This document shows, in pieces, positions 11,624-43,484 of a DNA stretch of 64,000 nt. A program made the position numbers and the translations under genes. The notes beneath the pieces are model-generated. The model had not been told where the DNA came from. It worked only from the letters and a program-made list of their open reading frames with translations, and ran no database searches. Origin of the DNA: a virus. Location: IMG/VR virus record IMGVR_UViG_3300050821_006672, positions 1 to 64,000 of that record. One strand, 5' to 3'. Within the stretch, counting starts at the first letter, position 1; every line of letters starts with the position of its first letter.

Positions 11624-11789
11624 TGGCTTCTCCTTGTCTTGGATTGAACTTTGTCATCTCGGATGAGATACGTCGGAAGTGGTTTAACTTGTGCTCAAAG
11701 TACATCTTACAAGCGTAATCGATCCAGATCATACCAAAGAAAAAGACGAACAAACCGCAACTTACAAACATTACCAGCCAATCAAACAT
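11610..11789 (-). CDS. small membrane protein (59 aa, absent from ORF track)
   Basis: MFDWLVMFVSCGLFVFFFGMIWIDY...; GAGG RBS; fills the gap between genes. Confidence 0.55.
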   Translation of the reverse strand: MFDWLVMFVSCGLFVFFFGMIWIDYACKMYFEHKLNHFRRISSEMTKFNPRQGEANGQE

Positions 11790-11797
11790 TTTGGTTA

Positions 11798-12301
11798 TTA
11801 CCTCTGTCTGCGCAATCGGTCCATCTCGCGGCGATTATTTTCGGCATCATGTTCTTTCATACGCGATGTCGAGCTATCCAGGTTGGCGCCAAAATACCCG
11901 GCAACGTAGAGGTCACACATGGCCTTCAGCATGTAGCTGCGTTGCATGAATGCTTCTTTGAGCGCTTGCCACTGTCCGACCTGCTTGTTGAGTTCCAGGA
12001 GTCTGTCGGTGGCTTTGATGACATCCTTGTCCCGACGCTTGTCGCTCTCGATCTGACGTTCTGTTGTCTTAGTATCCGTGACTTCGGCATCGTGACGGAG
12101 TTGCGCGTCAATACGCGCCTCGATCTCTTTCTTCTCTTGGTCGGCAGCATCGCGTTGAGAGATCAGTAGCGTGAGTTGTTTAGTTACGCGGTAAAACAGA
12201 TCAGGATGGATCACGAGCTCATCATCCAATGAGTTCTCGTCGATATGTAATCCTTTTTCCAGGTCTGCGATACTAGGTGTTGTGATTGATCTGATGGTCA
12301 T
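11798..12301 (-). CDS. UvsY-like recombination mediator
   Basis: Helical protein (LHIDENSLDDEL...EAFMQRSYML) next to SSB and RecA. Confidence 0.55.
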   Translation of the reverse strand: MTIRSITTPSIADLEKGLHIDENSLDDELVIHPDLFYRVTKQLTLLISQRDAADQEKKEIEARIDAQLRHDAEVTDTKTTERQIESDKRRDKDVIKATDRLLELNKQVGQWQALKEAFMQRSYMLKAMCDLYVAGYFGANLDSSTSRMKEHDAENNRREMDRLRRQR

Positions 12302-12615
12302 TTCTGCTCCCCTTGTATCTCGATGCAGTCAAACTCAACAATTTCCATGTCTTCCTTCTTCCGGTGATGCTGCTTTTCAGGGACGGCCCAAGTCCCCTCA
12401 TCTGTACCTTCATAGTTAATATGAGTTTCGTTCTTGAAAATCCCTTGTAGCCAGTTGGACAGGAAGGCCCGCGCTGCCTGCTTGTTGTGGAAGATGCGTG
12501 GCTCGCGTTCGTTAGAGGGTTCCAGCCAAGAGCCGCCGCGTCGCTTACCTGTTTCCAGGCGCGGGATGAATAGGCCCGTTGATTTCTGGCGGACGGCATA
12601 GACTTTCATTATCAC
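12298..12615 (-). CDS. hypothetical protein
   Basis: Coupled ORF. Confidence 0.55.
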   Translation of the reverse strand: MIMKVYAVRQKSTGLFIPRLETGKRRGGSWLEPSNEREPRIFHNKQAARAFLSNWLQGIFKNETHINYEGTDEGTWAVPEKQHHRKKEDMEIVEFDCIEIQGEQK

Positions 12616-14600: not shown

Positions 14601-15019
14601 TTCTTTTCCCATGGAAATACTAGCCAAGTATCTTGTTCGACTTTTACAGAGAATGTATCAATGAATTGTGTTTCCGTAGGTTTTGCGTACACCACTGCAT
14701 AATGAGCAGTAAGCACTTTTTGTACGCTTTCTATCGTTTTTCCTGTACTAATAGTGTCATCAACTACTAATACGGGACTAGGCATGAGACGGGGAAACTT
14801 GGTGATGTGAAGAAGACTGCCTCGTTGTTTGTTTTCGTCGTAGCTTTCTATGCATAGGGTTTCAATCATACGAATGTTGAGTTCGTGTGCAATTATTGTG
14901 GCTGGAACCAAGCCCCCTCGGGATACTGCAATAATTGATGCGAAGCCCCGTGGCAGTTGTTTGATGAGTGCTCTGGTGTCCTGATGAAATCGTTCCCAGG
15001 TGATGTTGATGGTATTCAT
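14597..15019 (-). CDS. gpt: xanthine/guanine phosphoribosyltransferase-like
   Basis: AVSRGGLVP, PRPP loop VVDDTISTGKT, C-terminal WLVFPWE. Confidence 0.85.
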   Translation of the reverse strand: MNTINITWERFHQDTRALIKQLPRGFASIIAVSRGGLVPATIIAHELNIRMIETLCIESYDENKQRGSLLHITKFPRLMPSPVLVVDDTISTGKTIESVQKVLTAHYAVVYAKPTETQFIDTFSVKVEQDTWLVFPWEKK

Positions 15020-18000
15020 GATCGCTTATGTCCCCAAATTTCTACGGAACTGAACTTGCCAATCTCGGTCAGGTCACACCAGTTTTCTCCAACTGAGACT
15101 TCCACCCCTAGAGGAACATTTACCCATGGGAACTCTACGCGGGTCATCTCACGTACTACAATTTCCAAGTTCTTGTCGATTTCGTGCTTGGGCCAGATGA
15201 AAGTCAAATCATCATGTATCTCCATATTGGCTTGGAAACGTAATTGTTCATATTCGGACAATCGCGCCATAGCAGAACATACAATTTTCGATTCAAGTGC
15301 TTGGATAGGGCTGTTGATTCTTTGGTTAGGTGAGATTGGTGCACGACGCCTGAAACCGGACAGTCCCGTGATGTACCCTAGTTTGTAGTACATCTTTTCT
15401 AAGTCGTCATGCCACTTTTTGATATCAGGAAACTTACTCCAGAATGTCTCTTGTAGTTTGACGCCGATGTGTTTCGGAACACCCAACCCTCCCGATACAT
15501 TTTCTGCCTGCGCGCCGAAGAACGAGGGAAATACGAACTTGTTCTTCGACTCCTGCCGGAGTTCCTTTGCAAGTTCCTTGTCTTTGAGTGATTTTCCACG
15601 CAACCATTGCGGATACATTTTGGCGAGCCGATACATCCAGTCCGAATGAATGTCATAGTTGTTCCAGAATGCATCTACCAAAGCTTTATCACATGACTCC
15701 ATAGCAACATTACGTGCTTGAATACCTGAGAAATCAACTGTGACAACACGCAAATCCCCTCCCGGCTTAACCTGCTTTCGCAACTTACGGTTAGGCCCAT
15801 GCTTTACTATGTTTTGGCTATTAGGATCATTACTACTCGTTCGCCACGTGCGAGTACTATGCGTGCTAATGTGAGGATGAACGCAGCCATCCGAGTATAA
15901 AGTATCCGAGCCCTTCTTGAAGGGAAGTATATACGTGGAATGCATCTTGTTGGCTTCGCGCCAATCCAAGACCAAGTTTACAAAAGGATGTTTGATCTGT
16001 TTGAGTTCGTTTTCATCCACGCTCTCGACGGGATGATTGAGTATCTTCTCAATGACGAACTTGACATCCTGATTGGCTGATGGTCGAAATTCTGTCTTTT
16101 TTATCCGAGCAAACTTCTTTACGACGTCGAGTTGTGTCAGGTCTTTCTCTATCTTGCTACGACGTTGCGTAAATTCCTTGTCAAACTCGTTAACGACATC
16201 CTGGTTTGCTGGAATGCCTTTCAATTGGGTGAGAACCATCGTTGGGATGCGCCGCAACTGATGCTCGTACACACCCATCAAATCTTCGTCACGCAGACGT
16301 TTACGCTGTGGGAAGTACAAGTAGCGATGGGCTTTGCTATCGAGTGCGTTGTAACGTAGGACTTGGTCTAATGGTTCCTTGTCCAGGTTGTTCTTATCGA
16401 GCTTCCCAAACAACGCTTTTACGTCCAGCCCAAAGTACTGGATGCAAAGGAACTCGAGGCTGTGGCATCCGGGGTTGCCTCCCATACGTTCATCCAGGAT
16501 GTAGGCTTGTGAAAGCGTGTCTTCCCAGGGTTGGGCGCGGAGTACCTTCCTGCCATAGAAATATGCTGACCACTCCATTTCAAAGGAGAGTGAATGTACC
16601 ACCTTCTTACAAGGAGCGGTCAGGAGAAACTCTAGCAGAGTATCTTCTACGCGTTCGATCTGACGATCAGACCAGTCACATTCTGGATGATACAAGGGAA
16701 ATGATGCGGCAACCTCATATCCCGCCATTGCCACTGTGAGTATTTTTGAGGTCTTCTTGTATGGGCGTAATCCTTTTGTTTCGTAGTCATAGCCGACGAT
16801 CTTTTCGTTATGCATCGCCTTGATGAACTTGATTGCGGCATCGGGATTTGTAATGATCTCTACGTCACGTGAGAGGTCCTCGACGGTGAAAACCTTGGGT
16901 TCGGGGAGTTTGTCAACGATGGCAAATGCATTACGCAGATCATTAGCAAATGCGAACTCGATGTCCGAGCCATAGCTGTTTTTATCCCTTGGCTCAAACT
17001 TGCGGGACCGTCCTACGTAGGACGGATGCATCATGGGGAAGAACCAGCAAATGTGATTCCCTACCTTGATGGGAACATGTCTGCCATTCCACTTGGTAAT
17101 GCCTTGCTGCTTGAGCGCCCATTGAAGGGGCACGTTTCCAAAACCGAAGATTGCTTTTGGCTTTGTCTTTTCTACGTCGGACGTAATTGATGGACGGCAG
17201 CACTCCACTTCTACCTGGGTAGGTTCACGGTTCTTGGGTGGTCGAGTGTTGCTTACGACATGATTTTCCGCTACATACCAACCTTCGTCGGTTTCTAAGT
17301 TGTATATAAATCCTTCAAAGGGTTGGGTATCAATATGAATGACATTGTCAAACTGTATAAGAGTGGGGTTAGTTTGTGTCAACTTGAAGAGCAACTCGGA
17401 ACCTCCAAGTTCTTGATTAAGAAAATCCTCCTTTCTAATGGGGTGCGAATGCGTACCCATAGAGAGTCCAGAAATATTGAAGCGGCTAAGCCCTTGTGGA
17501 GACCTCCATCCGTTAAGGAAGTCTGTGATAGGTACGTCGCCGGTGAAAGCACGGAAGAACTCGCTAAAATTTATCATGTCCGCCCGCGTACTGTAAGTAG
17601 TTTTCTCAAACGGAACGGTATTAAAATCAGAAATGTTAGTGAACAGCTGCGTGTTTGGGCAAAGCGAAATCCCAGTGTTATCGATAGGAAACGTCGCTTC
17701 GGTCAGGGTATTAGATTGGGGGCCAATCTCAGAGAGGTTTGTACTCGCGAGGCACGTGCTAGAAGACTTCAACAAACACTTTCTGTTGCCTCTGATATTG
17801 AGCTGCTGTTGATTCCCGAACTTAAGCGGAGAAGCATTCGATTTATCAGACAGTACCCAGTTGGGACTTACAACCTCGACTTCGCCTGTTCCAATATCGC
17901 CGTGGAAATTGAAGTTAGTGTCAACCATCCGTTGGCTATGCCCCACAAGAGATTGCGCTGCAAAAAGCTCATCGAGGCGGGATGGTTTGTTTTGTTCGTG

Positions 18001-18537
18001 TGGATAAATTCCTCCCATCCATTGGTTCCTGCTACCGTAGTTAACTATTTGATCTCCAAGAGAAAGTTGATACGCGAAAAGCCATCCTTGGGATGTAAGT
18101 ATTGGGTGGTGCGGGGTACAGGGGAGTTCGTCTCCAAAACGCGTCTTGACTATTATAAGCTCACCCACGAAGTAGCGGCGGAATAACTTCTTTATTCTGG
18201 ACGGTGTTGTTACTTTTACTGAACCAGGAAAGCAGCGCACTACATTGGTCCATCGAATCTTATCATTCCATTTCTCAGGAATGCGAAAGCGTAGTATCTG
18301 GCCCGTCTTCCCGACAAACTGCTTTCCTTGCTCGTCTTCCGAGGCCCCAGGGGCTTCCCCAATTACTAAAATTGTAGGATGATCGGAACCAGTTGGCTCC
18401 ATGTGTGGATGTTTTAGCCCGCGCTGATGGTTGAGCGGACAGACCGCGCAGCCATGGCGATGAAGGAAATCTACAGATAGGTTTTTGGGAACCAGTGATT
18501 CATTGTTGCGAGCTGGGGACGTTGGAAGGAAACCCAT
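15016..18537 (-). CDS. family A DNA polymerase with N-terminal family-4-like uracil-DNA glycosylase domain, 3'-5' exonuclease and intein
   Basis: CAVC, GEAPG, FVGKTG, HPSY (UDG); YDYET, YNALD (exonuclease); RTSSNDPNSQN, DFSGIQAR, RQESK, IHDD (polymerase). Confidence 0.9.
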   Translation of the reverse strand: MGFLPTSPARNNESLVPKNLSVDFLHRHGCAVCPLNHQRGLKHPHMEPTGSDHPTILVIGEAPGASEDEQGKQFVGKTGQILRFRIPEKWNDKIRWTNVVRCFPGSVKVTTPSRIKKLFRRYFVGELIIVKTRFGDELPCTPHHPILTSQGWLFAYQLSLGDQIVNYGSRNQWMGGIYPHEQNKPSRLDELFAAQSLVGHSQRMVDTNFNFHGDIGTGEVEVVSPNWVLSDKSNASPLKFGNQQQLNIRGNRKCLLKSSSTCLASTNLSEIGPQSNTLTEATFPIDNTGISLCPNTQLFTNISDFNTVPFEKTTYSTRADMINFSEFFRAFTGDVPITDFLNGWRSPQGLSRFNISGLSMGTHSHPIRKEDFLNQELGGSELLFKLTQTNPTLIQFDNVIHIDTQPFEGFIYNLETDEGWYVAENHVVSNTRPPKNREPTQVEVECCRPSITSDVEKTKPKAIFGFGNVPLQWALKQQGITKWNGRHVPIKVGNHICWFFPMMHPSYVGRSRKFEPRDKNSYGSDIEFAFANDLRNAFAIVDKLPEPKVFTVEDLSRDVEIITNPDAAIKFIKAMHNEKIVGYDYETKGLRPYKKTSKILTVAMAGYEVAASFPLYHPECDWSDRQIERVEDTLLEFLLTAPCKKVVHSLSFEMEWSAYFYGRKVLRAQPWEDTLSQAYILDERMGGNPGCHSLEFLCIQYFGLDVKALFGKLDKNNLDKEPLDQVLRYNALDSKAHRYLYFPQRKRLRDEDLMGVYEHQLRRIPTMVLTQLKGIPANQDVVNEFDKEFTQRRSKIEKDLTQLDVVKKFARIKKTEFRPSANQDVKFVIEKILNHPVESVDENELKQIKHPFVNLVLDWREANKMHSTYILPFKKGSDTLYSDGCVHPHISTHSTRTWRTSSNDPNSQNIVKHGPNRKLRKQVKPGGDLRVVTVDFSGIQARNVAMESCDKALVDAFWNNYDIHSDWMYRLAKMYPQWLRGKSLKDKELAKELRQESKNKFVFPSFFGAQAENVSGGLGVPKHIGVKLQETFWSKFPDIKKWHDDLEKMYYKLGYITGLSGFRRRAPISPNQRINSPIQALESKIVCSAMARLSEYEQLRFQANMEIHDDLTFIWPKHEIDKNLEIVVREMTRVEFPWVNVPLGVEVSVGENWCDLTEIGKFSSVEIWGHKRS
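17248..18234 (-). mobile_element. intein (329 aa) in the UDG domain of the polymerase
   Basis: Starts CFPGSVKV, CTPHHPILTSQGW (B), FIYNLET (F), ends VVSN followed by Thr; splicing restores TNVVR-TRPPKNREP. Confidence 0.88.
17335..18186 (+). CDS. HTH-repeat plus DUF559/Vsr-like endonuclease encoded antisense inside the polymerase intein
   Basis: Two HTH repeats (LYKSGVSLCQL, RYVAGESTEELAKIYHV); SDIE...RQYPVGTYNLDFA...IAVEIE...LIEAGWFVLFVW. Confidence 0.8.
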   Translation: MNDIVKLYKSGVSLCQLEEQLGTSKFLIKKILLSNGVRMRTHRESRNIEAAKPLWRPPSVKEVCDRYVAGESTEELAKIYHVRPRTVSSFLKRNGIKIRNVSEQLRVWAKRNPSVIDRKRRFGQGIRLGANLREVCTREARARRLQQTLSVASDIELLLIPELKRRSIRFIRQYPVGTYNLDFACSNIAVEIEVSVNHPLAMPHKRLRCKKLIEAGWFVLFVWINSSHPLVPATVVNYLISKRKLIREKPSLGCKYWVVRGTGEFVSKTRLDYYKLTHEVAAE

Positions 18538-18635: not shown

Positions 18636-19682
18636 CTATGCCATTGCTGCGACCATGTAGATCGCTCCGCGCGCATTCGTCAGGATCATACATTTGTTTG
18701 TAATGAGCATCTTGGTGTAGGTGTCGAGGCCGGATTTGATATGACGGCAGTCAATCTTGAGTGATACGTCGGGATGATCCTCTTTGAGTTTCATCGAGTC
18801 CATCATTTCACCACGCAATTGTGAGTTCGTTTCCATCCTGAGACGACCATCCCCAATCGTAATCGTCGTATAGTTCTTTTCTGAAGCTACATCAGCGATG
18901 ATGATTGCGCGCTCGATCATTTCCTTGAGACGTACAGGAATAACGATCGCGGACTTCTTGATATCCTGCGGGACATTGTGGTTGACGATCTTATGGAACT
19001 CGATGGGTCTATCGGTTTCGATCAGTTTCCCGAACAGGGTGACGTTACCTGAGGTGAGCAGACTGTACTCGTCATTGATCTCGATCTTGCTTGCTCCTGA
19101 CTTGGCAATCTTGACGGCCTGCTTGCAGAACTCTGTCGACAGCGTCACGCGGTTCTTGATGGGAGGTACGCTGGTCAGATTGAGTGGCACGTAGGTCAAT
19201 GTCAAATCGTTGGTCCCGAACATCGCCAGGAACTTTTCGGTGCGGACCAGGGTCACACCAAGTTGCTCGGGTTTTGATGGATCGGTTCCTGCCGATTGTA
19301 GGCATAGTTCGAGTCCTTCGAAAAACGTATCGGGGAAATTGGTAGTATCCTTCGCCGGCTTGGGCATCTCGAAGATGAAGGACGACGCAGGCATCGTGGG
19401 GAATGCTATGTTTACCCCACCTGCTTTTAGACGTAGATTGTTCTCGTCTTGGGTGAGATTGACCTCCTCGGCACGAAGCGTCTTGACCAGACTGGTAAAC
19501 GTGTTCCCCTGGATCGCGCATTCGAAATCTGTCTTGAGGCGTGTAGAAACCGCAATGGCATCGTTGTAAGCCATTATGCCGGCCCCAGTGAACCAGATGT
19601 GGTTCAGGATGGGAATAATGTCGTGATTGGCAAGGGCTGGACTGACGAGATCGACGCAATCGACTAAGTCTGTTCGGCGCAT
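18636..19682 (-). CDS. dnaN: DNA polymerase sliding clamp (beta subunit-like)
   Basis: 348 aa; VSPALANHDIIPILNHI N-terminus; next to polymerase and clamp loader. Confidence 0.75.
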   Translation of the reverse strand: MRRTDLVDCVDLVSPALANHDIIPILNHIWFTGAGIMAYNDAIAVSTRLKTDFECAIQGNTFTSLVKTLRAEEVNLTQDENNLRLKAGGVNIAFPTMPASSFIFEMPKPAKDTTNFPDTFFEGLELCLQSAGTDPSKPEQLGVTLVRTEKFLAMFGTNDLTLTYVPLNLTSVPPIKNRVTLSTEFCKQAVKIAKSGASKIEINDEYSLLTSGNVTLFGKLIETDRPIEFHKIVNHNVPQDIKKSAIVIPVRLKEMIERAIIIADVASEKNYTTITIGDGRLRMETNSQLRGEMMDSMKLKEDHPDVSLKIDCRHIKSGLDTYTKMLITNKCMILTNARGAIYMVAAMA

Positions 19683-20719
19683 AATTCAATTTCCTTCATG
19701 TGCTCGACAAAATCATGATAGCGTCGAATGACATAACTCTCGTTATTCCAATCATACACACTACGCCGCATTTTGCATTGAACCAATCCTGATGTCATAT
19801 ACTTTTCGAACCGCTCTTGTTTGGTCTCGCGGAGTTCAAAGTAAGACAACAATCTAAAATTTGCGCCACGTCGTGTCAGCGAAATGTTCTGCGGGTTAGT
19901 TTTTATCATGGTGGCAAATACTACGTTGAAATCATCTGTTTTACGCGTTTCCCGAACGTGTTTTTGTAGTCCTTGATAGTAGATGATGTTTAGGTCTTGT
20001 CGTGTGTGTGGCGTGTTGCATACGCTCTCAATGGGGAGGTCGAGTTGATCTCGGACGTACTTATTGAGTGAATGCCTGAGTCCCGCGTCAAGTCCGAGCA
20101 TCCCATAAGAAATGCCGGAGGCAGTTGTTATGCGTGGTGAAAAACGTACTGAGGTTGGGCGTGAGAAATCTGGTTCTTTGTTTCCCAACGCGGGGATGTA
20201 AACCTGCCCAAAGCCTCCTTTGAGTGCCCAACTCGTTGAGTCCACAGTTGTCCAGGGATAACGCAAAAGTAGGTTGGGTCCAGTTGCGCCGAACCCGTGT
20301 GTTTTGATTGGTTTCTTCCCCTGACGTTTTGCCAGTATTCCGAAGCAGCGATCCAGCCAGCGATGAAGCTCGTTGGGATGGGAGCGTAAGTAGGGGGAAA
20401 TCCCAATGTAGGATTCTTTGTCATCGATCAGGCGTTCGAGCCAATCAAAGTTTTCTCCCTGATGAAACACGGGGATGGGATTCAACCCTTTGTCTTTAAT
20501 GCGCTGTAGATTCTCGTAGGAAAGGCGTGCGGAGCGTTCGACAGATTCGTGGGTCCGGATGAGCTTTCCCTTTGATCCAGGGATAACGTCCATGTTGACG
20601 TAGGCAAAGATCAACTCCTTGTTGCGTTTGATGAACTCGACGTATTCGTCGATGCTGATGGAAATGTCACGACGCCACGCCGAAAATGCGCCGCTGTCCA
20701 AAAGGAGAGTAATCATCAA
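19664..20719 (-). CDS. TGT-fold DpdA-like deazaguanine DNA transglycosylase
   Basis: LLDSGAFS, MDVIPG, PVFHQGE, THGFG, VDSTSW; next to folE, queC and queD. Confidence 0.7.
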   Translation of the reverse strand: MMITLLLDSGAFSAWRRDISISIDEYVEFIKRNKELIFAYVNMDVIPGSKGKLIRTHESVERSARLSYENLQRIKDKGLNPIPVFHQGENFDWLERLIDDKESYIGISPYLRSHPNELHRWLDRCFGILAKRQGKKPIKTHGFGATGPNLLLRYPWTTVDSTSWALKGGFGQVYIPALGNKEPDFSRPTSVRFSPRITTASGISYGMLGLDAGLRHSLNKYVRDQLDLPIESVCNTPHTRQDLNIIYYQGLQKHVRETRKTDDFNVVFATMIKTNPQNISLTRRGANFRLLSYFELRETKQERFEKYMTSGLVQCKMRRSVYDWNNESYVIRRYHDFVEHMKEIELCAEQT

Positions 20720-21291
20720 TCACCATTGGAACTGTTGACCAGCGCCATGAATTCAGCGCGGCATTCCGGCTCATCTTTTATACAGCCTCGCAAAGCAGAC
20801 GTCGTCGTCGTAGTGCCTTGGCGTTGGACGCCCCTTGATTCGAGGCAAAGATGTCGAGCACGGATTACAACGCCAACGCCTCTTGGCGTGAGTTCTGCAT
20901 TTAGGGCGTTAGCAATTTGTGTACAAAGACGTTCTTGAACAGTCAAGCGCCGCGCAAAAATGTCAACTACACGGCTCAGTTTGGATAGGCCCACAATCTT
21001 ACGGCCACGAGGAATGTAACCAATACACGCAGTACCAAAGATTGGCGTCATGTGGTGACAGCAATGCGAGTAAATTGGTATTCCTGCTTGGAAGATCAGT
21101 TCGTCAACAGGAGTTTCCTCCTCGAACAACTTGATTACATCCTCAACATTCTGTTGGTAGCCGGACATCCAGAAACGCCAGGCACGTATGACGCGCGCCG
21201 GCGTTTCTCGAAGCCCCTCACGGTCGACATCTTCACCCAGGCGCGAGAGGAGTTCTTTAATCAACTCTTCGTCAGTAACGTGGGTGAGCAT
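20716..21291 (-). CDS. folE: GTP cyclohydrolase I
   Basis: REGLRETPARV, SHCCHH, GLSKLSR, QERL, HLCLESRGV. Confidence 0.95.
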   Translation of the reverse strand: MLTHVTDEELIKELLSRLGEDVDREGLRETPARVIRAWRFWMSGYQQNVEDVIKLFEEETPVDELIFQAGIPIYSHCCHHMTPIFGTACIGYIPRGRKIVGLSKLSRVVDIFARRLTVQERLCTQIANALNAELTPRGVGVVIRARHLCLESRGVQRQGTTTTTSALRGCIKDEPECRAEFMALVNSSNGD

Positions 21292-21301
21292 GGGTTTCCC
21301 C

Positions 21302-21943
21302 TTACAGTTCGATCTCGAGAAGACCTGCGTCGACCAGGGCCTTCATGGTGTCACGCGTATCGGCGCGCATCGAACCGATGGTCATTTCGGTCCCCTTGTA
21401 ACCCTCGTCCTTGAGTTTGGACATCAGGTCTTCGACGCTGATACTGGGCTTCTTGATGACGATCTGCTTGAGGCGGCGGCGCATCGAAAGTGGCTTCTTC
21501 TCGCCACTGCCGTTCTTCTTTGAAGCCGCCGTCTTCTTCGCGGCAGGCTTATCAGCAGCCTTCTTTGCCGGTGTCTTCTTGGTGGCAGCGATTTTCTTCG
21601 TCTTTGTCTCCATTACCTCTTCTTCTCCTGGTTCATCGTTGGTATCATCTTCGGGTTCTTCTTCCCCACGTTCGTCTTCCCCGTCTTCGACTACTCCGTC
21701 ATCTTCGTCGGGGAAAGGAGGTACGTCATCGGCACTCAACTCGAGAATTTCGCCGTCGGCATGTTTCTTGCCGGCCTCGATTACCGAGTTGTAGAACTCT
21801 TGGGCTTCGGTGCTTAGACTTTCCCAGCCCTCCTCATCAAGCGTTTCCGCCTTGCTGATCAGTCTCTTGATCAGGTCGGCGTCGACCTCGTTCTTTTTGG
21901 GCTTTACGCCCGTCGCTTCGAGTAGCATTTCACGGATTGACAT
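21302..21943 (-). CDS. protein with acidic and Lys/Ala-rich (histone H1-like) tracts
   Basis: DE-rich middle region, KKTPAKKAADKPAAKK, small C-terminal domain. Confidence 0.6.
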   Translation of the reverse strand: MSIREMLLEATGVKPKKNEVDADLIKRLISKAETLDEEGWESLSTEAQEFYNSVIEAGKKHADGEILELSADDVPPFPDEDDGVVEDGEDERGEEEPEDDTNDEPGEEEVMETKTKKIAATKKTPAKKAADKPAAKKTAASKKNGSGEKKPLSMRRRLKQIVIKKPSISVEDLMSKLKDEGYKGTEMTIGSMRADTRDTMKALVDAGLLEIEL

Positions 21944-21958
21944 GTAGCATTGTCCCCG

Positions 21959-22645
21959 TCAGTTTGCATAGCCTGTCGGATCGGACACGCCTGCTTTGGC
22001 GAATCCCTCTTTACGAGCACGGCATGTGGGACAAGCGCCACAGTGCTGCTCTCCCCCGGCGTAACAGGACCACGTTAATGACCAGTCTACACCGAGTTCT
22101 TCACCAAGTTTGATAATGTCGTGTTTAGCCAACCACTCTAACGGTGTGGCCAGACGAATCGTGTGATAGGTGCCGATGTAGATGGCGTTTGCCATCGCGC
22201 CAATCCACTCCGGCGTGCAATCGGCGTAGGCCCAATTTTGGGCATCCTCGGCATGGGCACCAAAGTAGATTGTCCATTCCGTTCCTTGTTGCAGCTCAGC
22301 TTTTACGTAATCGCCGACCACTGTGGATGTAATGGCTGAAAGAATTAAGCCGTTTCGAAATGGAACGTAGGTTGGGGAGATGCCCTTGATATCGTTGTAG
22401 GACATATTGGGAATTTTTACGTTTGGGTCAGTCAGCATGGTTGGTGGAATAATTGACGAAAGGTCTCGTACCCGATGGGGAATGTCAAGGGCTTGGCAAG
22501 TCATTTTCGCGTGTTTGATCTCTTTCTTATGGCGCTGCCCGTAATCAATACTGATTGCTTCTATGGGTTCGTGGCGTGTGTGTGCCAAATATAAACACGT
22601 CGTACTGTCAATCCCTCCGCTGAGGAGGACGTAGGCTTTTGACAT
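21959..22645 (-). CDS. queC: 7-cyano-7-deazaguanine synthase
   Basis: LSGGIDS, YGQRH, YVPFRN, YADC, SCY..CGACPTC. Confidence 0.95.
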   Translation of the reverse strand: MSKAYVLLSGGIDSTTCLYLAHTRHEPIEAISIDYGQRHKKEIKHAKMTCQALDIPHRVRDLSSIIPPTMLTDPNVKIPNMSYNDIKGISPTYVPFRNGLILSAITSTVVGDYVKAELQQGTEWTIYFGAHAEDAQNWAYADCTPEWIGAMANAIYIGTYHTIRLATPLEWLAKHDIIKLGEELGVDWSLTWSCYAGGEQHCGACPTCRARKEGFAKAGVSDPTGYAN

Positions 22646-22651
22646 GGAAGA

Positions 22652-23149
22652 TCATCCTCGATGATTGAAGTCAGATAACCTTACATACGCGGAATTACCG
22701 GCGTGCTCGCGTACCTCTAGTTTGACCAGTCGCACTCTTGGGGAATGGCCTTTCAAATCCAACCAACTTTCCAGGCGTTCAAACGTGAGTAATGCAATTG
22801 CCTCACATCCGGTGTTCTCTACCGTGCGAATGTCCAGTGCGTTGCCTTCCGTGGCTTTGACAAACAAGTCAAACATTGGGTCGTCTTTGGCGACCAGTGT
22901 TGTGTGATCGAACATGACTTCCAACCACTGTCGAAAATCTCCCAATCCTCCGAAGTCAATTGTCCAGTTGTTGTCGTCGAGTTCTGTAGCTTCGAACGTC
23001 GCTGAGAACTCCAACGCATAGCCATGCAAATGCTTGCAATGAGAAGAGGCCCGCCACTGGCGGAACGCCGTGGATAGTCCAACGCTAGATGTGTAAGTCT
23101 TGGTCGATCCAAAAACAATGTCGGTCCGATCGGTGATCTTACGAGCCAT
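22652..23149 (-). CDS. queD: 6-carboxytetrahydropterin synthase
   Basis: SHCKHLHGY, IDFG, FDH, GCE, EVRE. Confidence 0.9.
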   Translation of the reverse strand: MARKITDRTDIVFGSTKTYTSSVGLSTAFRQWRASSHCKHLHGYALEFSATFEATELDDNNWTIDFGGLGDFRQWLEVMFDHTTLVAKDDPMFDLFVKATEGNALDIRTVENTGCEAIALLTFERLESWLDLKGHSPRVRLVKLEVREHAGNSAYVRLSDFNHRG

Positions 23150-25088: not shown

Positions 25089-26423
25089 TCAGTTTAATTC
25101 GATGCATTCCCCGAATGGAACTGAATCCATTCGATGGCACAACTGTTTGATGAACATAGGCTGTTCATACCCAGCCCATAGGACCCGGTAGGGAGGTTCT
25201 GATCCGAACGAACTTGAGTCGAGATCAGTAAGGTAAACGACTCCAGCCACATCCGGAGCATTTTCAGTGAACCATGCAAATGCCGGATCGAATCGTGTCC
25301 CGCCTCGGCCTTTGGCCTTCAAGTCGATGATCTCGCCCATTACGTACTCGGTGACGCTCTGGACACGATCATCGCAGAACACGACGGTGAGCTTGTCGAT
25401 CTTGCCGTCGTCGAGTGCTGCCTGCGCCTCACTCGCGAACTGTTGCAACATTTCTGACGATACCGACGCCGAATCATCGACCGCGATACCAACGTGATGG
25501 ATGCCGTCAGTTGTAGTGCCCGGTGCGATGATACCAAAGGGCAACATGCGTCGGTTCGGTCTTGCCCATGTGTAATCCTTGGTCGAGGACGGCTCAATCC
25601 AGGAACGTAGTACATCCCGCCAGTCGACTTTGGGTCGATTGAGGTTGGTGATGATTTCCTCGATAAACCCAGGAAGTCGACCTTCGCCCTGACGACGTGC
25701 AAAGTTTGTAGCCTGCCGGACTGCGACATTCCATTCTTCAGCTACGTCGTCCAGAGTCGATTGGTCGTTCTGTGGAGCGGCGTCGATGACGGCGCCGCAA
25801 TCGCCCGGGTCTGATATTGGCGCGTTTGTGCCGTTCGCTGAATCATCCCCAGCATTACCAGAGTTGCTCCCATTAGCAGGGCTATCAGCGTCATCAGTGC
25901 CCTGACCTGTGCTTCCTGTTTCTGCGTCCACATCGTCGTCATTCCCATCCTTGTCGCCGCTTTGGTTTTGTCCATCATCCTCACCATCACCTTCTTGGTC
26001 ATCGCTCTCTTCGGGCTGTTCCTGCTGCTGGGTCTTAAGGATGCGATATACATCGTCGGCATGCATCCCCTTGAACTGAACGTCGCAGTACGCTTCTTGT
26101 GGAACAACGAATCCGGCCTCTCGCAGGGAAAGGTTCACGACGTGATCACATGCGACGTTCCACAATTCAGGATCGCGGTTACCACGCCGTGTAGTGTGGT
26201 TGAGGGCGCAGTGAAGAACCTCGTGCGCCCCCACGAATAGCAGCTTTGGATCATTGCAGCGATCGAGAAACGCTGGGTCGTAAAGCCAGCGTTTGCCATC
26301 CGTCGCCATCGTGCCAATCCCGGGTGCCGACATCAGTTGAAGTCGCGATGCCAGGAACCCGAAGAAGGGATGGTGTACTATGAGCTGCGAGCGCAGCCTT
26401 GTCATTCGTGGGTCGATGTCCAT
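25089..26423 (-). CDS. HExxH metallopeptidase plus VWA domain protein (DUF2201-like)
   Basis: TMATDG, HEVLH, MIDAS DDSAS, GRGGT, LTD. Confidence 0.85.
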   Translation of the reverse strand: MDIDPRMTRLRSQLIVHHPFFGFLASRLQLMSAPGIGTMATDGKRWLYDPAFLDRCNDPKLLFVGAHEVLHCALNHTTRRGNRDPELWNVACDHVVNLSLREAGFVVPQEAYCDVQFKGMHADDVYRILKTQQQEQPEESDDQEGDGEDDGQNQSGDKDGNDDDVDAETGSTGQGTDDADSPANGSNSGNAGDDSANGTNAPISDPGDCGAVIDAAPQNDQSTLDDVAEEWNVAVRQATNFARRQGEGRLPGFIEEIITNLNRPKVDWRDVLRSWIEPSSTKDYTWARPNRRMLPFGIIAPGTTTDGIHHVGIAVDDSASVSSEMLQQFASEAQAALDDGKIDKLTVVFCDDRVQSVTEYVMGEIIDLKAKGRGGTRFDPAFAWFTENAPDVAGVVYLTDLDSSSFGSEPPYRVLWAGYEQPMFIKQLCHRMDSVPFGECIELN

Positions 26424-26432
26424 TATGTCCCC

Positions 26433-27482
26433 CTAGATCAAAACATGCTGATTGCGAACGGCCCACTCCGTGTAACCCTTCGCGACCTTCAAGGAAGGAT
26501 CACGCTTGGTTGCAGACTGGGCGACGATCACTTGATATTCCTCAGGCAGACGCGCCAGGTACGTGAAGATCGGTCCTGACGTTTTGGCGGTCATTAGATT
26601 ACCCAACATCCCTGCTACGGCATACTGAACATCGGGTTGCGCCCCACTTGGCACTCGAGCTGCTTTGGGATCAGAGATGATATCGTCGATAGAGATCATA
26701 TTGGAGTAGACTCGCCAGAACGCTTCGAACTCGTCGGCCGCAGCCGGTCCGACGTAGCCCGAGAATATCTTACGGCGCATTGCGGGAGCTTCGTCGATGA
26801 ACTGGAACGCATTGGTCCAGGACCGGGCCGATGGGAACGCTGTCTCGTCCTTGCCAACCGAGAATGCCGTCTGTCCCGCGATGCCGATTGTCTCGCCCGG
26901 CATGACGTGGAACAGTGCGGGGCGGAACCGGAGGAAGGCGACACCGCGATGATCGACATGTTCCAACGCGTACTGTTCAAGCCACGATGTAAGATCGGGC
27001 TCGACGCACTGCACGTTGAAGCGATTGGCGAGCGCGGTTGACATGCGCTGGGCCGCTGCACGATCAGCGACGTTGTTGCCAGATGCCATTGCAACCCAGC
27101 CGCCAGGCATTGTCCAAGAACCAATCCGTCGCTCCTGAATGATGCCGTAGGCCGTAGCCTGCATCAGTTGACTGACCACGTTGATCTCGTCGAACAGCAT
27201 GATGCCATCAGGACCGTGCTTCTTCTCGTCGGGAAGATCATCGGGACAGAACCAACGCAGCTTGCCAGTCTTGGCATCGGGAATGCGGATGCCACCGACA
27301 TCGACTGGGTCCCGCAACGTCAGTCGAAAGTCGATGAATCCGATCTCCATGGTTTGGCATGTCTTCTCGAACAGCGAGGTCTTACCCATGCCGGGCTTGC
27401 CGAGAAGCATCAAGGGGCGGCGTTTACCGTAGTGACTTTTGATCATCGCCGCTGCGTCGAGCATTGAGATTGAGTGTGTCAT
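26433..27482 (-). CDS. MoxR-like AAA+ ATPase
   Basis: GKPGMGKT, LFDE, ASGN, ALANRF, PSARSW. Confidence 0.85.
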   Translation of the reverse strand: MTHSISMLDAAAMIKSHYGKRRPLMLLGKPGMGKTSLFEKTCQTMEIGFIDFRLTLRDPVDVGGIRIPDAKTGKLRWFCPDDLPDEKKHGPDGIMLFDEINVVSQLMQATAYGIIQERRIGSWTMPGGWVAMASGNNVADRAAAQRMSTALANRFNVQCVEPDLTSWLEQYALEHVDHRGVAFLRFRPALFHVMPGETIGIAGQTAFSVGKDETAFPSARSWTNAFQFIDEAPAMRRKIFSGYVGPAAADEFEAFWRVYSNMISIDDIISDPKAARVPSGAQPDVQYAVAGMLGNLMTAKTSGPIFTYLARLPEEYQVIVAQSATKRDPSLKVAKGYTEWAVRNQHVLI

Positions 27483-37192: not shown

Positions 37193-37651
37193 ATGGACCT
37201 TTCAGAACTCACCCAACTCGGCAGTGTCAGCGAAATCCCTGAGTCGCCGGATAGAGCAGTCATCGAGATCGTCAACAACCCTTATCCGCAGTTGCCCTAC
37301 ACGTGTCGGTTCACCTGTCCTGAAATGACCTCTTTGTGCCCACGGACGGGTGCTCCCGACTTCGCAACGATCGTCATCGACTACCAACCCAAAGAGTTCC
37401 TGATCGAATCCAAATCCCTCAAACTGTTCATCGCGTCGTTTCGCAATCACAGAGGCTTCCATGAAGTCTGTACCGTCATGATCTGTGATCGCCTCTATCA
37501 AGCAGTTTCACCATGTTGGATTCGTGTCGTCGGTATGTGGATGCCGAGGGGCGGAATTCCTATCGACGTTGTGATCGAGGTCGGTTGTCCTGAAGGCGAT
37601 CAGCTTCCTCCCGAGATGCCAATCGACCTTCGTGCTTATCGGGCAAGGTGA
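37193..37651 (+). CDS. queF: NADPH-dependent preQ0 reductase (preQ1 synthase), unimodular
   Basis: [15 protein letters not shown], QueF motif [16 protein letters not shown]. Confidence 0.92.
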
Positions 37652-37654
37652 GAT

Positions 37655-37954
37655 ATGGCCAACATTGCGGAGTTGATCACACAGATTGAAACTTTTCTGG
37701 AAGATGCTGATCGTTTCGAACTTGCTGATGACAGTGTGGTTGATATCTGGCCGGCTACTAGAGCACTGGATGAGTTGAAACTCGTCCTCGCCGCGCAGGC
37801 GCAGGAGATCGAGCGGCTAAGAGACGCACTAGAGGCCTGTCGCCAACATGTCCGGCATCACAACAATTCGGGAAGTTGGTGGAACGATCCAATAGTTTGG
37901 AAATTAATGCGAGAGAAAATTGACCCAGCACTTGGAATAGAGACGCGAGAATGA
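37655..37954 (+). CDS. hypothetical protein
   Basis: ORF in operon. Confidence 0.55.
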   Translation: MANIAELITQIETFLEDADRFELADDSVVDIWPATRALDELKLVLAAQAQEIERLRDALEACRQHVRHHNNSGSWWNDPIVWKLMREKIDPALGIETRE

Positions 37955-38871
37955 CTCTATCATTCGGGGCAGAGCACGAGTGGGCCGACTTCCCACTCGA
38001 TGGGGTATTTCCTTATGGATTCAAGCATAACAAGAAAGATCACACCGTCGTCAATTCTAATGGCATTGCCAATGACCCGTCTGGTAGGCTCTACAAGTTT
38101 GGTGGTGAGATCAATTCCCCACCGACAGATTCGATAGGCGATCAACTCGACATCACCGAGAGATTAATTGACTACTTGGACATGGCGAAAGTGAACTATC
38201 GCTCCAACTTGCATATTCATCTACGTGTTCCCGGGTTGCGTGATGATCTTGCCATGCTCAAACAGGTCCAGAGATACACTCACACGAACATGCCTGCCGC
38301 GTTGCAACTCATCGAGCCCATTCCCAAGCCTTCTCATCGGGACAAACAATTCGAGAATCATTTCCAAGCTTACGAAGGTGCTCTGCGCCGCTACAAACGC
38401 AGGTGCGTCAGTCATCACACGTTGCTGACGCCTAAACGTCTGGCCTACCAACTCGAGGCCAGGACATGCGATGAGTTCTTCAGGCTAGAAGTTCCTGCCG
38501 CCCCCAATGGACGCGTGCTATGGCATCTCCAACCAAGACTGTGTGTGTCTTTGAGACAAATGCTGGAGACCGATACGATCGAGTTTAGGCATTGGCCGGG
38601 TACGCTTGATATAGACGAGTTATCGACATGTTTCCAATGGTGCAAACGTTTCATCATTGCGGCGATGAATGATCGGCCTATACTCGACTTGTTGGCATGG
38701 GCCAGGAAACAAACGTTCCCGAAGTTCCCGGATTACGTCCACTGGATGGAGTTACGTTATCGTGCCACGGTCCATGATGGGTCCCTGTCCAAGGACGAGA
38801 TCAAGCGTAATATCGCGAGAATACTCGATGGTAAGTTTGATGAACACGGAATAGGCGAGTCATTGCCATGA
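37951..38871 (+). CDS. putative amidoligase (COOH-NH2 ligase, glutamine synthetase/GCS2-like fold)
   Basis: SFGAEHEW, GGEINSPP, SNLHIH, TIEFRH. Confidence 0.75.
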   Translation: MTLSFGAEHEWADFPLDGVFPYGFKHNKKDHTVVNSNGIANDPSGRLYKFGGEINSPPTDSIGDQLDITERLIDYLDMAKVNYRSNLHIHLRVPGLRDDLAMLKQVQRYTHTNMPAALQLIEPIPKPSHRDKQFENHFQAYEGALRRYKRRCVSHHTLLTPKRLAYQLEARTCDEFFRLEVPAAPNGRVLWHLQPRLCVSLRQMLETDTIEFRHWPGTLDIDELSTCFQWCKRFIIAAMNDRPILDLLAWARKQTFPKFPDYVHWMELRYRATVHDGSLSKDEIKRNIARILDGKFDEHGIGESLP

Positions 38872-39320
38872 ACATCCTCGTTGTCTGCCTTGGTAACATC
38901 TGGCGCTCGCCATTGTGCGCAGCGGTCCTGTCACGTGAAAAAGGATTAAGTGTCAAGTCCGTGGCGTTCCTCAAAGGAGGCAGGCGTGCCGCTCCCGGTG
39001 CGAGAGATTATGCACAAAACAAATTGAACGTGGACCTATCCGAACACCGCTCGCAGCAGATTACCGCGGCTGACATTGGCTGGGCCGATATCATAGTATG
39101 TATGAACGAAAGGCACATTCAACGTTTGAAGGCACTCGTCCCGCGTAAACAACTGTGGTGGGTGCGTAATCTCGGGGATTACGCCGATCCTGTAAGATCG
39201 TCAATTCCCGATCCCAACTTCATCTCTGATCCGATCCGCCTTGCGAAAACGTTGGATTTGATCTACAAGGCGTCTACCAACTTGGGAAGGCAACTCGTAG
39301 CCAAGACGGTGTCAAAATGA
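38868..39320 (+). CDS. low-molecular-weight phosphatase (LMW-PTP/ArsC fold)
   Basis: VCLGNIWRSP (CX5R), ADIIVCM, IPDP. Confidence 0.85.
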   Translation: MNILVVCLGNIWRSPLCAAVLSREKGLSVKSVAFLKGGRRAAPGARDYAQNKLNVDLSEHRSQQITAADIGWADIIVCMNERHIQRLKALVPRKQLWWVRNLGDYADPVRSSIPDPNFISDPIRLAKTLDLIYKASTNLGRQLVAKTVSK

Positions 39321-39514
39321 CCGTCGTTATTTTCCGTGATGTTCAGATTGGTGATATGATCTTGGCTATTCGAGCAGCAAAATGGTTGTTGGCGCAGGAC
39401 CTAGGTCAGAAAGATGCTATACTGGCTTATGGTAAAGGTGATGATGAGAAAAGCTTCTATGTCAAACGCAACAAAAGCAGCATTACGGTGAGGTCGTGCT
39501 CCCGATCTTTGTGA
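39317..39514 (+). CDS. hypothetical protein
   Basis: Coupled ORF. Confidence 0.5.
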   Translation: MTVVIFRDVQIGDMILAIRAAKWLLAQDLGQKDAILAYGKGDDEKSFYVKRNKSSITVRSCSRSL

Positions 39515-40239
39515 ACGAGATATTTGGCCCAACTATCCAAGGCGAGGGTCCGTCAGCGGGAATGCCTTGCATGTTCTTGCGGACAGCATACTGCAATTTA
39601 TCTTGCCGGTGGTGTGACACCCCCTACACGTGGAATTGGATTGGTTCGGCGCCAGGAAATCATCCAGACAAGTTCATTCGTGAGAATGAAGTTCATAAGA
39701 TGACGGTTGATGAGGTGCTTACCCAGTTGGGGGAAGTTTCAACTTCAACAATAAGAGTACTTCCTCCTGTTCGTTCTTTGGTGATCTCGGGTGGAGAACC
39801 TATGCTGCAACAGCGCCGACTCATGCCTGTAGTTAGTATGTTGGTGATGGCAGGTTGGTGGATCGAGATCGAGACAAATGGGGCGGTCATGCCCATCGCG
39901 GCATTCACGGGGATGTTGGATCAGATCAATTGCTCCCCCAAGTTGTCCAACTCAGGAGACTCGCTAGAGCGGCGAATCAAAGAAGGACCATTGCAGGCTC
40001 TTGCGAAGGACGATAAGACAATCTTCAAGTTCGTAGTAGGCTCGGAGCCGGACCTGGATGAGGTCAATGCATTGGTCAGACAGTTCTGTATGAGGAACGT
40101 GTGGCTCATGCCGCAGGCGCGGACCAAGGAAGAGTTGGAGAAGAACTATCCGTTGGTCTGTGCATGGGGGAAGCAACTCGGGTACAATGTGAGTTCGCGT
40201 AAGCACATTGAATTGTGGGGGTCAAAACGGGGTGTTTGA
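39496..40239 (+). CDS. queE: 7-carboxy-7-deazaguanine synthase (radical SAM)
   Basis: EIFGPTIQGEG, CNLSCRWCDT, SGGEP, ETNG, CSPK. Confidence 0.93.
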   Translation: MLPIFVNEIFGPTIQGEGPSAGMPCMFLRTAYCNLSCRWCDTPYTWNWIGSAPGNHPDKFIRENEVHKMTVDEVLTQLGEVSTSTIRVLPPVRSLVISGGEPMLQQRRLMPVVSMLVMAGWWIEIETNGAVMPIAAFTGMLDQINCSPKLSNSGDSLERRIKEGPLQALAKDDKTIFKFVVGSEPDLDEVNALVRQFCMRNVWLMPQARTKEELEKNYPLVCAWGKQLGYNVSSRKHIELWGSKRGV

Positions 40240-40433
40240 TGGCAGGATTACTTGAGCCACAAAGACTTGACTACTGTAATTGGTATTACGAATACCCGAC
40301 GTATATGCTACTTGTTCATGAGGTAAGGGATAAAAAGGGCAAGCTGCTCACTACTGATAGCATTAAAATTCAGTGGCGTAAGATTCAGGCTTCATTGAAG
40401 CGCAGTTACAAGCCTAAGAGAAAGCCGCGTTGA
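40239..40433 (+). CDS. hypothetical protein
   Basis: Coupled ORF. Confidence 0.5.
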   Translation: MAGLLEPQRLDYCNWYYEYPTYMLLVHEVRDKKGKLLTTDSIKIQWRKIQASLKRSYKPKRKPR

Positions 40434-40439
40434 AGCCTC

Positions 40440-40468
40440 TTGCAATTTTATTGCGCATCCTCTATTGT
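40440..40468 (+). promoter_or_regulatory. sigma-70-like promoter for the NusG paralogue
   Basis: TTGCAA-17-TATTGT, 9 nt before ATG 40478. Confidence 0.45.
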
Positions 40469-40477
40469 ATTCGACCC

Positions 40478-40969
40478 ATGACAGGCGGACGTTGGATAGT
40501 CGCGGTCACACAACCCAACCGGGAGGGCTGGGCACTCGAAAATATCGAGCGCCAGTCCTACAAATATTACTTCCCGCAAGTAGCCGAACGCGTCAAGACA
40601 TCCCGACATTTGATGGAGTTCCGTGCCCGCCCATTATTTCCCAGACACGTGTTTGTCTACATTGAAGACAAGTGGCATTCGCTCCTGAGTACATTTGGTG
40701 TCAGGAGTATTATTATGTTCGGAGGCAATGTCGCTGTCGTTCCAGAGCGCGACATACAAAGAGTCCGTGCCATGGAAGATCAGATGGGATTGGTAATACT
40801 TCCCAGACTCCGTGAAGGTCAAGAGGTAATCCTCAAACGTGGAGCCTTCTCAGGCCAACGCGGTATCTACCAGGGTCAAAGTTCGAAAGATCGTTGTAAA
40901 GTGTTGCTTGCTTACCTGGGTCGTGTAGTTCCGGTTTTGGTTGATAGTGACATACTCAAAGCAGCTTGA
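40478..40969 (+). CDS. NusG/RfaH-family transcription antiterminator
   Basis: WIVAVTQPNRE, RPLFPRHVFV, STFGV, KOW-like GQEVILKRGAFSG. Confidence 0.85.
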   Translation: MTGGRWIVAVTQPNREGWALENIERQSYKYYFPQVAERVKTSRHLMEFRARPLFPRHVFVYIEDKWHSLLSTFGVRSIIMFGGNVAVVPERDIQRVRAMEDQMGLVILPRLREGQEVILKRGAFSGQRGIYQGQSSKDRCKVLLAYLGRVVPVLVDSDILKAA

Positions 40970-42950: not shown

Positions 42951-43083
42951 AAAGGGAGAGGCGCAGTTCAGGCGCTTCCTGGAAGATCAGGATCAGGCTT
43001 TCCAGATAGCGCTAGCCGATGCGGTGCGGAAGGGATTAGAGAATACGCCCAAGTGCCCGAGCCTCGACGAAATATTAAGCTAA
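42877..43083 (+). CDS. hypothetical protein
   Basis: GAGGA RBS. Confidence 0.4.
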   Translation: MKLLWWEQIGQQLGRPMKMLPQELEKGEAQFRRFLEDQDQAFQIALADAVRKGLENTPKCPSLDEILS

Positions 43084-43484
43084 ATCCGATGCGCGTCTTA
43101 GTCTGTGGGGGTCGCAATTTTAATAACAAGGATTTGGTTGTGCAAACTTTGAATGCGATAGCGGATGAGTTCGAGCTTTGGGCGCCTCCGGACGAATACG
43201 GCAATACGCTTCCTTTAGGCTTAACGATTATTGCTGGAGGGGCTTCTGGCGCCGATCGACTTGCTGCTGAATATGCCGCAGTAAATTGGGCGGGGTATAA
43301 GGAATTTCCTGCCGATTGGGTTAAGTATGGGCGATCGGCCGGTCCCGTCAGAAACCAGCAGATGCTGTTTGAAGGCAAGCCCGATATGGTTGTGGCTTTT
43401 CCAGGAGGACGGGGGACTGCCCATATGGTTACGGTAGCCCGACGAGCAGGCGTCCCCGTTCGTGAGATTGGGACCGATGGCTAG
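43053..43484 (+). CDS. SLOG/YspA-like (DUF2493) protein
   Basis: RVLVCGGRNF, GGASGAD, PADW, AGPVRN, AFPGGRGT; alternative start at ATG 43089. Confidence 0.8.
   Translation: MPEPRRNIKLNPMRVLVCGGRNFNNKDLVVQTLNAIADEFELWAPPDEYGNTLPLGLTIIAGGASGADRLAAEYAAVNWAGYKEFPADWVKYGRSAGPVRNQQMLFEGKPDMVVAFPGGRGTAHMVTVARRAGVPVREIGTDG

Follow-up and report, generated by a model that had tools for sequence, protein, structure and literature searches.

The 5-acetylaminomethyl-dU pathway of Pseudomonas phage PaMx11 ends with the N-acylation of an aminomethyl group in the major groove of DNA: besides the glycine:DNA transferase gp46 and the 5-hydroxymethyldeoxyuridine (5-hmdU) DNA kinase gp49, it includes the FAD lyase gp47, which cleaves N-alpha-glycinyl-thymine to 5-aminomethyl-dU in DNA, and the GNAT acetyltransferase gp48, which acetylates that amine (PMC8989533). 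The characterized steps of the thymidine pathways that follow the incorporation of 5-hmdU all take place on the DNA polymer (PMC8989533). The 7-aminomethyl nitrogen of preQ1 is modified in phages that combine FolE, QueD, QueE, QueC and QueF with DpdA, either by the formyltransferase DpdN, the product of which, fdPreQ1, is already an N-acyl preQ1, or by the DUF3109 methyltransferase DpdM, which yields mdPreQ1 (Cui et al. 2023, PMC10516641). These N-formyl and N-methyl forms are the two N-substituted derivatives of preQ1 among the eight 7-deazaguanine bases known in DNA, and the same work on dPreQ1 derivatives makes no mention of a ligase, an acetyl group or a GNAT (PMC10516641). An ATP-dependent amide ligase that acts on a DNA base has been demonstrated as well, namely CmoY, an AMP-forming, asparagine-synthetase-like AsnB homolog that couples the 5-carboxymethylcytosine of phage DNA to glycine, with the base supplying the carboxylate and without a phosphatase partner (PMC12783734). 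Here, we describe a queF-AmL-LMWP-queE gene run, in which a predicted carboxylate-amine ligase (AmL) and a low-molecular-weight phosphatase (LMWP) are flanked by two genes of 7-deazaguanine synthesis, in the IMG/VR record IMGVR_UViG_3300050821_006672 (positions 1–64,000, the first 64 kb of a 109,475-bp record, hereafter the window). By comparison with related loci, this phage probably makes an acylated preQ1 DNA base that has not been described.

The locus resembles the PaMx11 system in that a major-groove aminomethyl group would be N-acylated as the last step, and in clusters syntenic with that of PaMx11, AmL and LMWP occupy the exact position of gp48. However, the expected base is not derived from thymine but is a 7-deazapurine that QueF would make and DpdA would insert, and in place of an acetyl-CoA-dependent GNAT the proposed acylase is a predicted ATP-dependent GS-fold ligase that has a phosphatase as its partner. 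The biosynthetic genes are those of the DpdN and DpdM systems, whereas the candidate tailoring enzymes belong to unrelated folds. The likeness to CmoY lies in the ATP-dependent formation of an amide on a base in DNA as a step of phage hypermodification, but AmL is a predicted GS/GCL-type ligase. Fold and motif pattern connect AmL with the Pfam family Amidoligase_2 (PF12224) and the YbdK-GCS2 ligases, from which it differs in its score below the Pfam cut-off, its fixed LMWP partner and its DNA-modification context. Lee et al. had noted an ‘amidoligase of unknown function' in thymidine clusters of metaviromes, and a full-text search of the literature found no paper linking 7-deazaguanine with an amidoligase in the manner considered here.

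A preQ1 pathway with one candidate tailoring pair

The record is a complete genome of an uncultured phage, with direct terminal repeats and genes for terminase, portal and replication proteins. The coordinates of the relevant genes are given in Table 1. The QueF protein contains both the catalytic cysteine, within LCPRTGAPD, and the ESKSLKLF motif, which conforms to the family pattern E(S/L)K(S/A)hK(L/Y)(Y/F/W). QueF is the enzyme that creates the 7-aminomethyl group of preQ1. QueE has its best match to TIGR03365 (101 bits, below the cut-off) and also matches Radical_SAM and Fer4_12. For the DpdA-like protein, there was no match to the Pfam TGT family and a sequence search of the PDB was likewise empty; its gene adjoins that of FolE, and a DpdA homolog adjoins QueF in the metagenome contig L093. 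Because DpdA, FolE, QueD, QueC, QueE and QueF are all encoded, and the genome thus carries the full predicted set for the synthesis of preQ1 and its insertion into DNA, dPreQ1 is expected in the DNA of this phage. The pathway logic of the sequence-only reading, an earlier interpretation of the window, thereby holds for the genome as a whole. That reading had also placed a QueF with the ESKSLKLF motif, a ligase-like gene, an LMW phosphatase and QueE in one run with mostly overlapping or adjacent starts and stops; all four genes lie there on the plus strand, and four junctions in succession overlap by 4–19 bases (37951/37954, 38868/38871, 39317/39320 and 39496/39514). Two small open reading frames (ORFs) of the run, orf99 and orf65, had been missed.

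A search of the whole genome for a PF00551 formyltransferase (DpdN type), for DUF3109 (DpdM type) and for GNAT proteins found none of the three, so that known dPreQ1 tailoring enzymes elsewhere in the genome were rejected as candidates, which leaves AmL and LMWP as the sole candidates for tailoring. The possibility that a thymidine pathway is encoded at another site of the genome was rejected as well: tblastn of all members of the thymidine clusters described below and of PaMx11 gp46-gp50 against the 109-kb genome retrieved only a helicase and a weak FAD fragment. A search of the genome for PF18724 was empty, as was the control search for this family everywhere. Thus, on the evidence of its gene content, the phage is not a member of the thymidine hypermodification type that employs a 5-hmdU DNA kinase (5-HMUDK) and an amino acid:DNA transferase (AADT), even though it drew its AmL-LMWP pair from the gene pool of that type.

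A predicted GS-fold ligase and its phosphatase partner

The sequence of AmL scores 19.1 bits against PF12224, below the cut-off of 22. Its 595 homologs, the closest of which in the databases include P0002 with 69% identity, share the conserved motifs GxEHE, GGEIN, NLHxH and TxEFRH, and about 25 of the homologs among the matches listed carry a precomputed PF12224 match. When the AmL family was compared by hhalign with a canonical PF12224 protein (120 bits to PF12224), the motifs were aligned at an E-value of 3.5e-4; a sequence search of the PDB with the AmL profile returned noise only. The AF2 model of AmL has a pLDDT of 92.8. In structural comparison with VIA-align, ranks 1–19 are all occupied by GS, GCL, YbdK, GshF, PafA or Dop (Z 6.4–11.1, 158–230 residues aligned); YbdK, GCL, GS and PafA reach Z 8.7–11.1, gamma-glutamylmethylamide synthetase is also found among these top 19, and the next rank is the arginine kinase McsB with Z 4.9. 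The top Foldseek matches to the model come from the same families. Eight residues are invariant in the family (E8, E10, E53, H88, H90, R196, E211 and R213), and presumably fit the pattern of metal and phosphate ligands of the GS/GCL family. Taken together, the model and the motifs characterize AmL as a predicted divergent GS-fold, ATP-dependent amide ligase.

Some members of the AmL family (rows P0005, P0009, P0027 and P0034 of the alignment A1) have C-terminal extensions that end in ...DLFNS, ...LFSN or ...IFDC and resemble sliding-clamp-binding tails. The AmL of the window is devoid of such an extension, and a simple pattern found no tails of this kind in the IMG/VR AmL set.

The phosphatase retains the P-loop C7LGNIWR13S along with D115-P116, and the residues C7, G9, R13, S14, D115 and P116 are invariant in 68–69 of the 69 family members. 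LMWP is therefore predicted to be a catalytically intact CX5R phosphatase. A role as an ArsC-type reductase was rejected given that there is no conserved second or third cysteine across the 69 partners.

To judge from gene order, AmL and LMWP form a near-obligate pair, that is, one module. IMG/VR and metagenomes yielded 148 distinct AmL loci, of which 139 are informative for the pairing, and in 127 of these a hidden Markov model of the phosphatase detects LMWP downstream of AmL, on its strand and no more than 3 kb away, usually after a gap of a few bases. In five contigs, the two proteins are fused in one reading frame (L016:9943-11346, L020:9656-11335, L077, L116 and L129). The pair appears to be essentially viral because a scan of 185,579 prokaryotic species, with one genome per species, yielded just four matches, all on contigs of metagenome-assembled genomes. 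In a basal clade (L138:9980-12695, L119, L127, L139 and L144), AmL is followed by a small ORF, a phosphatase, LMWPc (66 bits), and a 334-aa protein without an assigned role.

The slot of an acetyltransferase in two base pathways

The usual home of the pair is the thymidine-hypermodification cluster: neighbor clustering combined with a Pfam scan places about 124 of the 148 AmL loci there, and five loci are linked to que genes. Two layouts recur. In the first (TA), the order is amino acid:DNA transferase (PF18724), FAD oxidoreductase, AmL, LMWP, 5-hmdU DNA kinase, kinase helical protein, ThyA-like protein and HD protein; in the second (TB), TET/JBP and GATase, sometimes with a glycosyltransferase, precede AmL and LMWP, which are followed by a transferase and a kinase. 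The TA layout is syntenic with PaMx11 gp46-gp50, with homologs of gp46, gp47, gp49 and gp50 that are 37–55% identical; the exception is L019, which has no gp47 match and a gp49 match of 31%. The GNAT acetyltransferase gp48 has no homolog in the TA clusters, and AmL-LMWP stands in its position, between the FAD lyase that follows the AADT and the 5-HMUDK that precedes gp50.

The five que-linked AmL loci are the window, L005/L166 (a complete 111-kb relative in which DpdA is also present), L083, L093 and the cultured jumbo Vibrio phage 2.275.O (L002, MG592671, 332034-340798), and QueF is encoded in all five. The order QueF-AmL-LMWP-RfaH is common to the window lineage, L083 and L005. In L093, one compact operon consists of AmL-LMWP-QueC-FolE-QueF-DpdA, with QueE. 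The Vibrio phage encodes an AmL that is 28% identical to that of the window and lies directly upstream of a bimodular QueF, followed by a YhhQ-like transporter, QueC, an Ntn amidotransferase, FolE and, further on, QueE. In the trees, this AmL is a separate branch, and the four close que-linked AmLs are nested with strong support within the PaMx11-type (TA) clade, which requires two changes of context. We do not claim that the pair was recruited independently to the que clusters of these four loci, given the test of a single clade reported below.

A set of 80 phage QueF loci was gathered with an alignment query (a single-protein QueF query in IMG/VR had found none). In several of these loci, a GNAT gene directly follows QueF (L172:2042-2440, L171:11024-11551, L183:3513-3872, L226:7768-8127 and also L185-L187). 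The order QueF-GNAT-RfaH in L172 marks the very slot that AmL-LMWP occupies in the window lineage; DpdA-QueF-GNAT-QueC is the order in L183, L185, L186, L187 and L226, and in L171 a diverged LMWP-like gene is kept after the GNAT. Thus, judging by gene position, GNAT and AmL-LMWP alternate directly downstream of an aminomethyl-forming enzyme in two unrelated base pathways, and this alternation is the main argument that AmL would N-acylate the aminomethyl group of dPreQ1. The GNAT genes that follow QueF predict N-acetyl-dPreQ1, a base absent from the eight derivatives reported (PMC10516641).

In L175, the slot between QueF and RfaH contains, on the opposite strand (11405-13257, minus), a canonical Amidoligase_2 gene (120 bits) and a gamma-glutamyl cyclotransferase-like gene. 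For cassettes of amide chemistry, this slot is apparently a hotspot.

Proposed mechanism and alternatives

Under the proposed scheme, preQ1 would be made by FolE, QueD, QueE, QueC and QueF and swapped for guanine in the phage DNA by DpdA, as the family membership of these enzymes suggests. AmL would spend ATP to convert a small carboxylic acid into an acyl phosphate, such chemistry being that of the GS/GCL-type ligase fold, and would couple the acid to the free amine of the 7-aminomethyl group of dPreQ1, leaving N-acyl-dPreQ1 in the major groove; the latter step is suggested by the equivalence of the gene slot with that of aminomethyl-base N-acetyltransferases. Acylation would most simply come after the insertion of the base into DNA, as in the thymidine pathway. 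As for the acyl donor, the habits of the fold, taken by themselves, suggest glutamate. The part of LMWP is more speculative: most likely, it would strip a phosphate from the acyl donor or from an intermediate, and our guess is that a phosphorylated donor might be unmasked later, perhaps to allow the glycosylation encountered in some clusters of the TET/JBP type. On this scheme, AmL-LMWP would be a transferable tailoring unit that acts on 5-aminomethyl-dU in the thymidine pathway and on 7-aminomethyl-7-deazaguanine in the phage of the window. The likely benefit would be escape from restriction and other DNA-targeting defenses, as with the known deazaguanine bases.

The acylation of dPreQ1 in DNA by AmL is the best reading of the comparative data, and we hold it with slightly better than even confidence. 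The suggestion of the sequence-only reading that the ligase acylates preQ1 gained comparative support from the PaMx11 acetyltransferase slot and from the alternation with GNAT after QueF, whereas the co-occurrence of the ligase with queF, which that reading had put forward as a check, came out mostly negative: the prevailing context is thymidine-linked, as the counts above show, and the pair is found at only one of the 80 phage QueF loci. A number of further observations weigh against acylation of dPreQ1. Most AmL loci are devoid of que genes, and the basal clade has neither thymidine nor que genes within 10 kb. In Vibrio phage 2.275.O, LMWP and DpdA were not detectable with the models tried. 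Under the approximately unbiased (AU) test, one shared origin for the four close que-linked AmLs could not be rejected (p 0.41). The source of the free amine in the TET/JBP-type clusters is one that we infer. The product of a GS-type ligation carries no phosphate, which leaves LMWP unexplained, and the arrangement in L171 hints that the phosphatase may be independent of the donor used by the ligase. Finally, the evidence for this and all other functional readings is comparative.

The phosphatase is accounted for if the polarity of the reaction is reversed, such that AmL activates a carboxylate of the base (7-carboxy-7-deazaguanine or, in thymidine clusters, N-alpha-glycinyl-thymine) and joins it to a phosphorylated amine, such as phosphoethanolamine, from which LMWP then removes the phosphate. 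The succession of an amidoligase and a phosphatase has a precedent in Campylobacter capsule amidation; the reaction of CmoY couples a carboxylate of the base to a free amine on DNA (PMC12783734), dCDG has been reported from viral DNA (PMC10516641), and QueE is encoded directly downstream of the pair in the window. Nevertheless, QueE does not adjoin AmL-LMWP in L083, L005 and L093, QueF is present in all five que-linked loci and is usually adjacent, although QueF and QueC would be pointless if 7-carboxy-7-deazaguanine were the substrate, and in the PaMx11-type clusters AmL comes after the FAD lyase, the enzyme that removes the carboxylate of the glycine; reversed polarity is, then, distinctly unlikely. 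It is also conceivable, albeit quite improbable, that the pair acts on the free base or nucleotide, in which case preQ1 would be acylated in solution before DpdA inserts it, or would be diverted, for example, to a small-molecule product. QueF itself works on the free base, the Vibrio phage AmL lies beside QueF and a YhhQ-type transporter in a locus where DpdA escapes detection, and a phosphoribosyltransferase is encoded in the window (14597-15019). The weight on the other side comes from the burden on DpdA, which would need to accept a bulkier base, and from the presence of the same AmL clade in the thymidine clusters, where the steps after the incorporation of 5-hmdU occur on the DNA polymer (PMC8989533).

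Base modification might not be involved at all: a PafA-like protein or peptide ligase with a protein phosphatase could target host or phage proteins and merely reside in a variable slot of early genes. Phosphorylated tyrosine or arginine residues of proteins are the classical substrates of LMW phosphatases, PafA and Dop are among the fold matches of AmL, the slot between QueF and RfaH is variable, with the opposite-strand Amidoligase_2 and GGACT module in L175, and the basal clade has no known modification genes nearby. We consider this possibility unlikely because about 124 of the 148 loci put the pair in thymidine-hypermodification operons in one fixed position, because the pair heads the que/dpdA operon in L093, and because the family is nearly confined to viruses. 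The least probable alternative is that AmL acts as an N-kinase, converting the aminomethyl group to a phosphoramidate, and LMWP as the matching phosphoramidase, in the manner of the arginine kinase McsB and the LMW-family arginine phosphatase YwlE. The LMW-PTP family does include P-N hydrolases, and phosphagen kinases have a fold related to that of GS, with McsB as a match at Z 4.9, but the ligase matches are far stronger (Z 8.7–11.1), and a futile cycle would result if a kinase shared a transcript or a reading frame with its own phosphatase.

With N-acylation of dPreQ1 retained as the preferred reading, a broader proposal, in which our confidence falls a little short of even, is that AmL-LMWP is a portable, base-agnostic module for amine capping. 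Such a module would read a CH2-NH2 group in the major groove, at C5 of uracil or at C7 of 7-deazaguanine, and build an undescribed amide on it; the product in the phage of the window would be a new N-acyl-dPreQ1, possibly one in which dephosphorylation unmasks a hydroxy-acyl or aminoacyl group, and the relatives with a GNAT would make N-acetyl-dPreQ1.

Gene neighborhood and other genome features

The genes listed in Table 1 for the plus strand belong to a tightly packed run (36.5–41.0 kb) that begins with two small ORFs without an assigned role and ends with the RfaH/NusG-like gene. The stop of orf99 overlaps the start of AmL; orf99 has no PHROG match and no homolog in the related loci. A consensus scan inside the run found promoter and terminator signals at chance level only, and megablast of the operon against cultured phages gave no match. 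The RfaH/NusG-like gene is closely followed by the GIY-YIG, terminase and structural genes. An RfaH gene also follows the variable slot in L083, L005/L166, L165, L172 and L175 and, on these gene orders, apparently marks the downstream edge of a variable tailoring slot in this phage lineage.

Table 1. Genes of the 7-deazaguanine pathway and of the AmL-LMWP gene run in the window
Feature	Coordinates	Strand	Evidence
DpdA-like DNA-guanine transglycosylase	19664..20719	-	phrog_887 (queuine tRNA-ribosyltransferase) 149.6 bits, E 2.8e-43, residues 5-178
FolE, GTP cyclohydrolase I	20716..21291	-	PF01227 214.9 bits
213-aa ORF between FolE and QueC, no assigned role	21302..21943	-	weak DUF6465 match; no PHROG match
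QueC, 7-cyano-7-deazaguanine synthase	21959..22645	-	PF06508 183.1 bits
QueD-like 6-carboxytetrahydropterin synthase	22652..23149	-	PF01242 58.6 bits
QueF, unimodular NADPH-dependent preQ0 reductase	37193..37651	+	TIGR03139 137.1 bits (cut-off 86.9); PF14489 103 bits
orf99, small, acidic, coiled-coil-like, no assigned role	37655..37954	+	weak SlyX/COMP coiled-coil matches
AmL, predicted divergent Amidoligase_2/GS-fold carboxylate-amine ligase	37951..38871	+	fold match, motifs, 595 homologs
LMWP, CX5R low-molecular-weight phosphatase	38868..39320	+	PF01451 61.3 bits (cut-off 23.2)
orf65, small, basic, no assigned role	39317..39514	+	no family match; overlaps both neighbors
QueE, radical-SAM 7-carboxy-7-deazaguanine synthase	39496..40239	+	five best NCBIfam matches all QueE models, below cut-offs
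orf72, small, no assigned role	40215..40433	+	no family match (including PHROG)
RfaH/NusG-like antiterminator	40430..40969	+	TIGR01955 81 bits (below cut-off); PF02357 43.5 bits

Several other genes of the window deserve mention. The family-A DNA polymerase (15016-18537, minus strand) has an N-terminal uracil-DNA-glycosylase (UDG) domain and an intein-like insert; UDG-PolA fusions have been recently described for phages with T-modified genomes (PMC13697223), and a polymerase of this type is present here although thymidine-modification genes are absent. Beside it, the small phosphoribosyltransferase mentioned above, on the minus strand, could supply deazaguanine or other bases to the nucleotide pools. 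A clamp-loader-like AAA+ protein (DNA_pol3_delta2; 12612-14627, minus strand) is split by a Hint/intein domain, a MoxR-like AAA ATPase is paired with a DUF2201 metallopeptidase/VWA protein (25089-27482, minus strand), and a protein with a YAcAr (YspA-related SLOG) domain is encoded just upstream of the large terminase (43053-43484, plus strand).

Implications

What is new here is a tailoring module that has not yet been characterized, within a known DNA-modification system. The locus predicts a ninth 7-deazaguanine DNA base, made by an enzyme class without an assigned function in DNA modification, and provides the first functional handle on the amidoligase noted by Lee et al. One gene pair is shared by two chemically different base pathways, the only obvious common feature of which is the aminomethyl group, and the substrate class of AmL-LMWP is therefore narrowed. 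New bulky bases in the major groove matter as enzymatic tools for site-selective derivatization of DNA and also for the escape of phages from restriction, CRISPR and glycosylase defenses.

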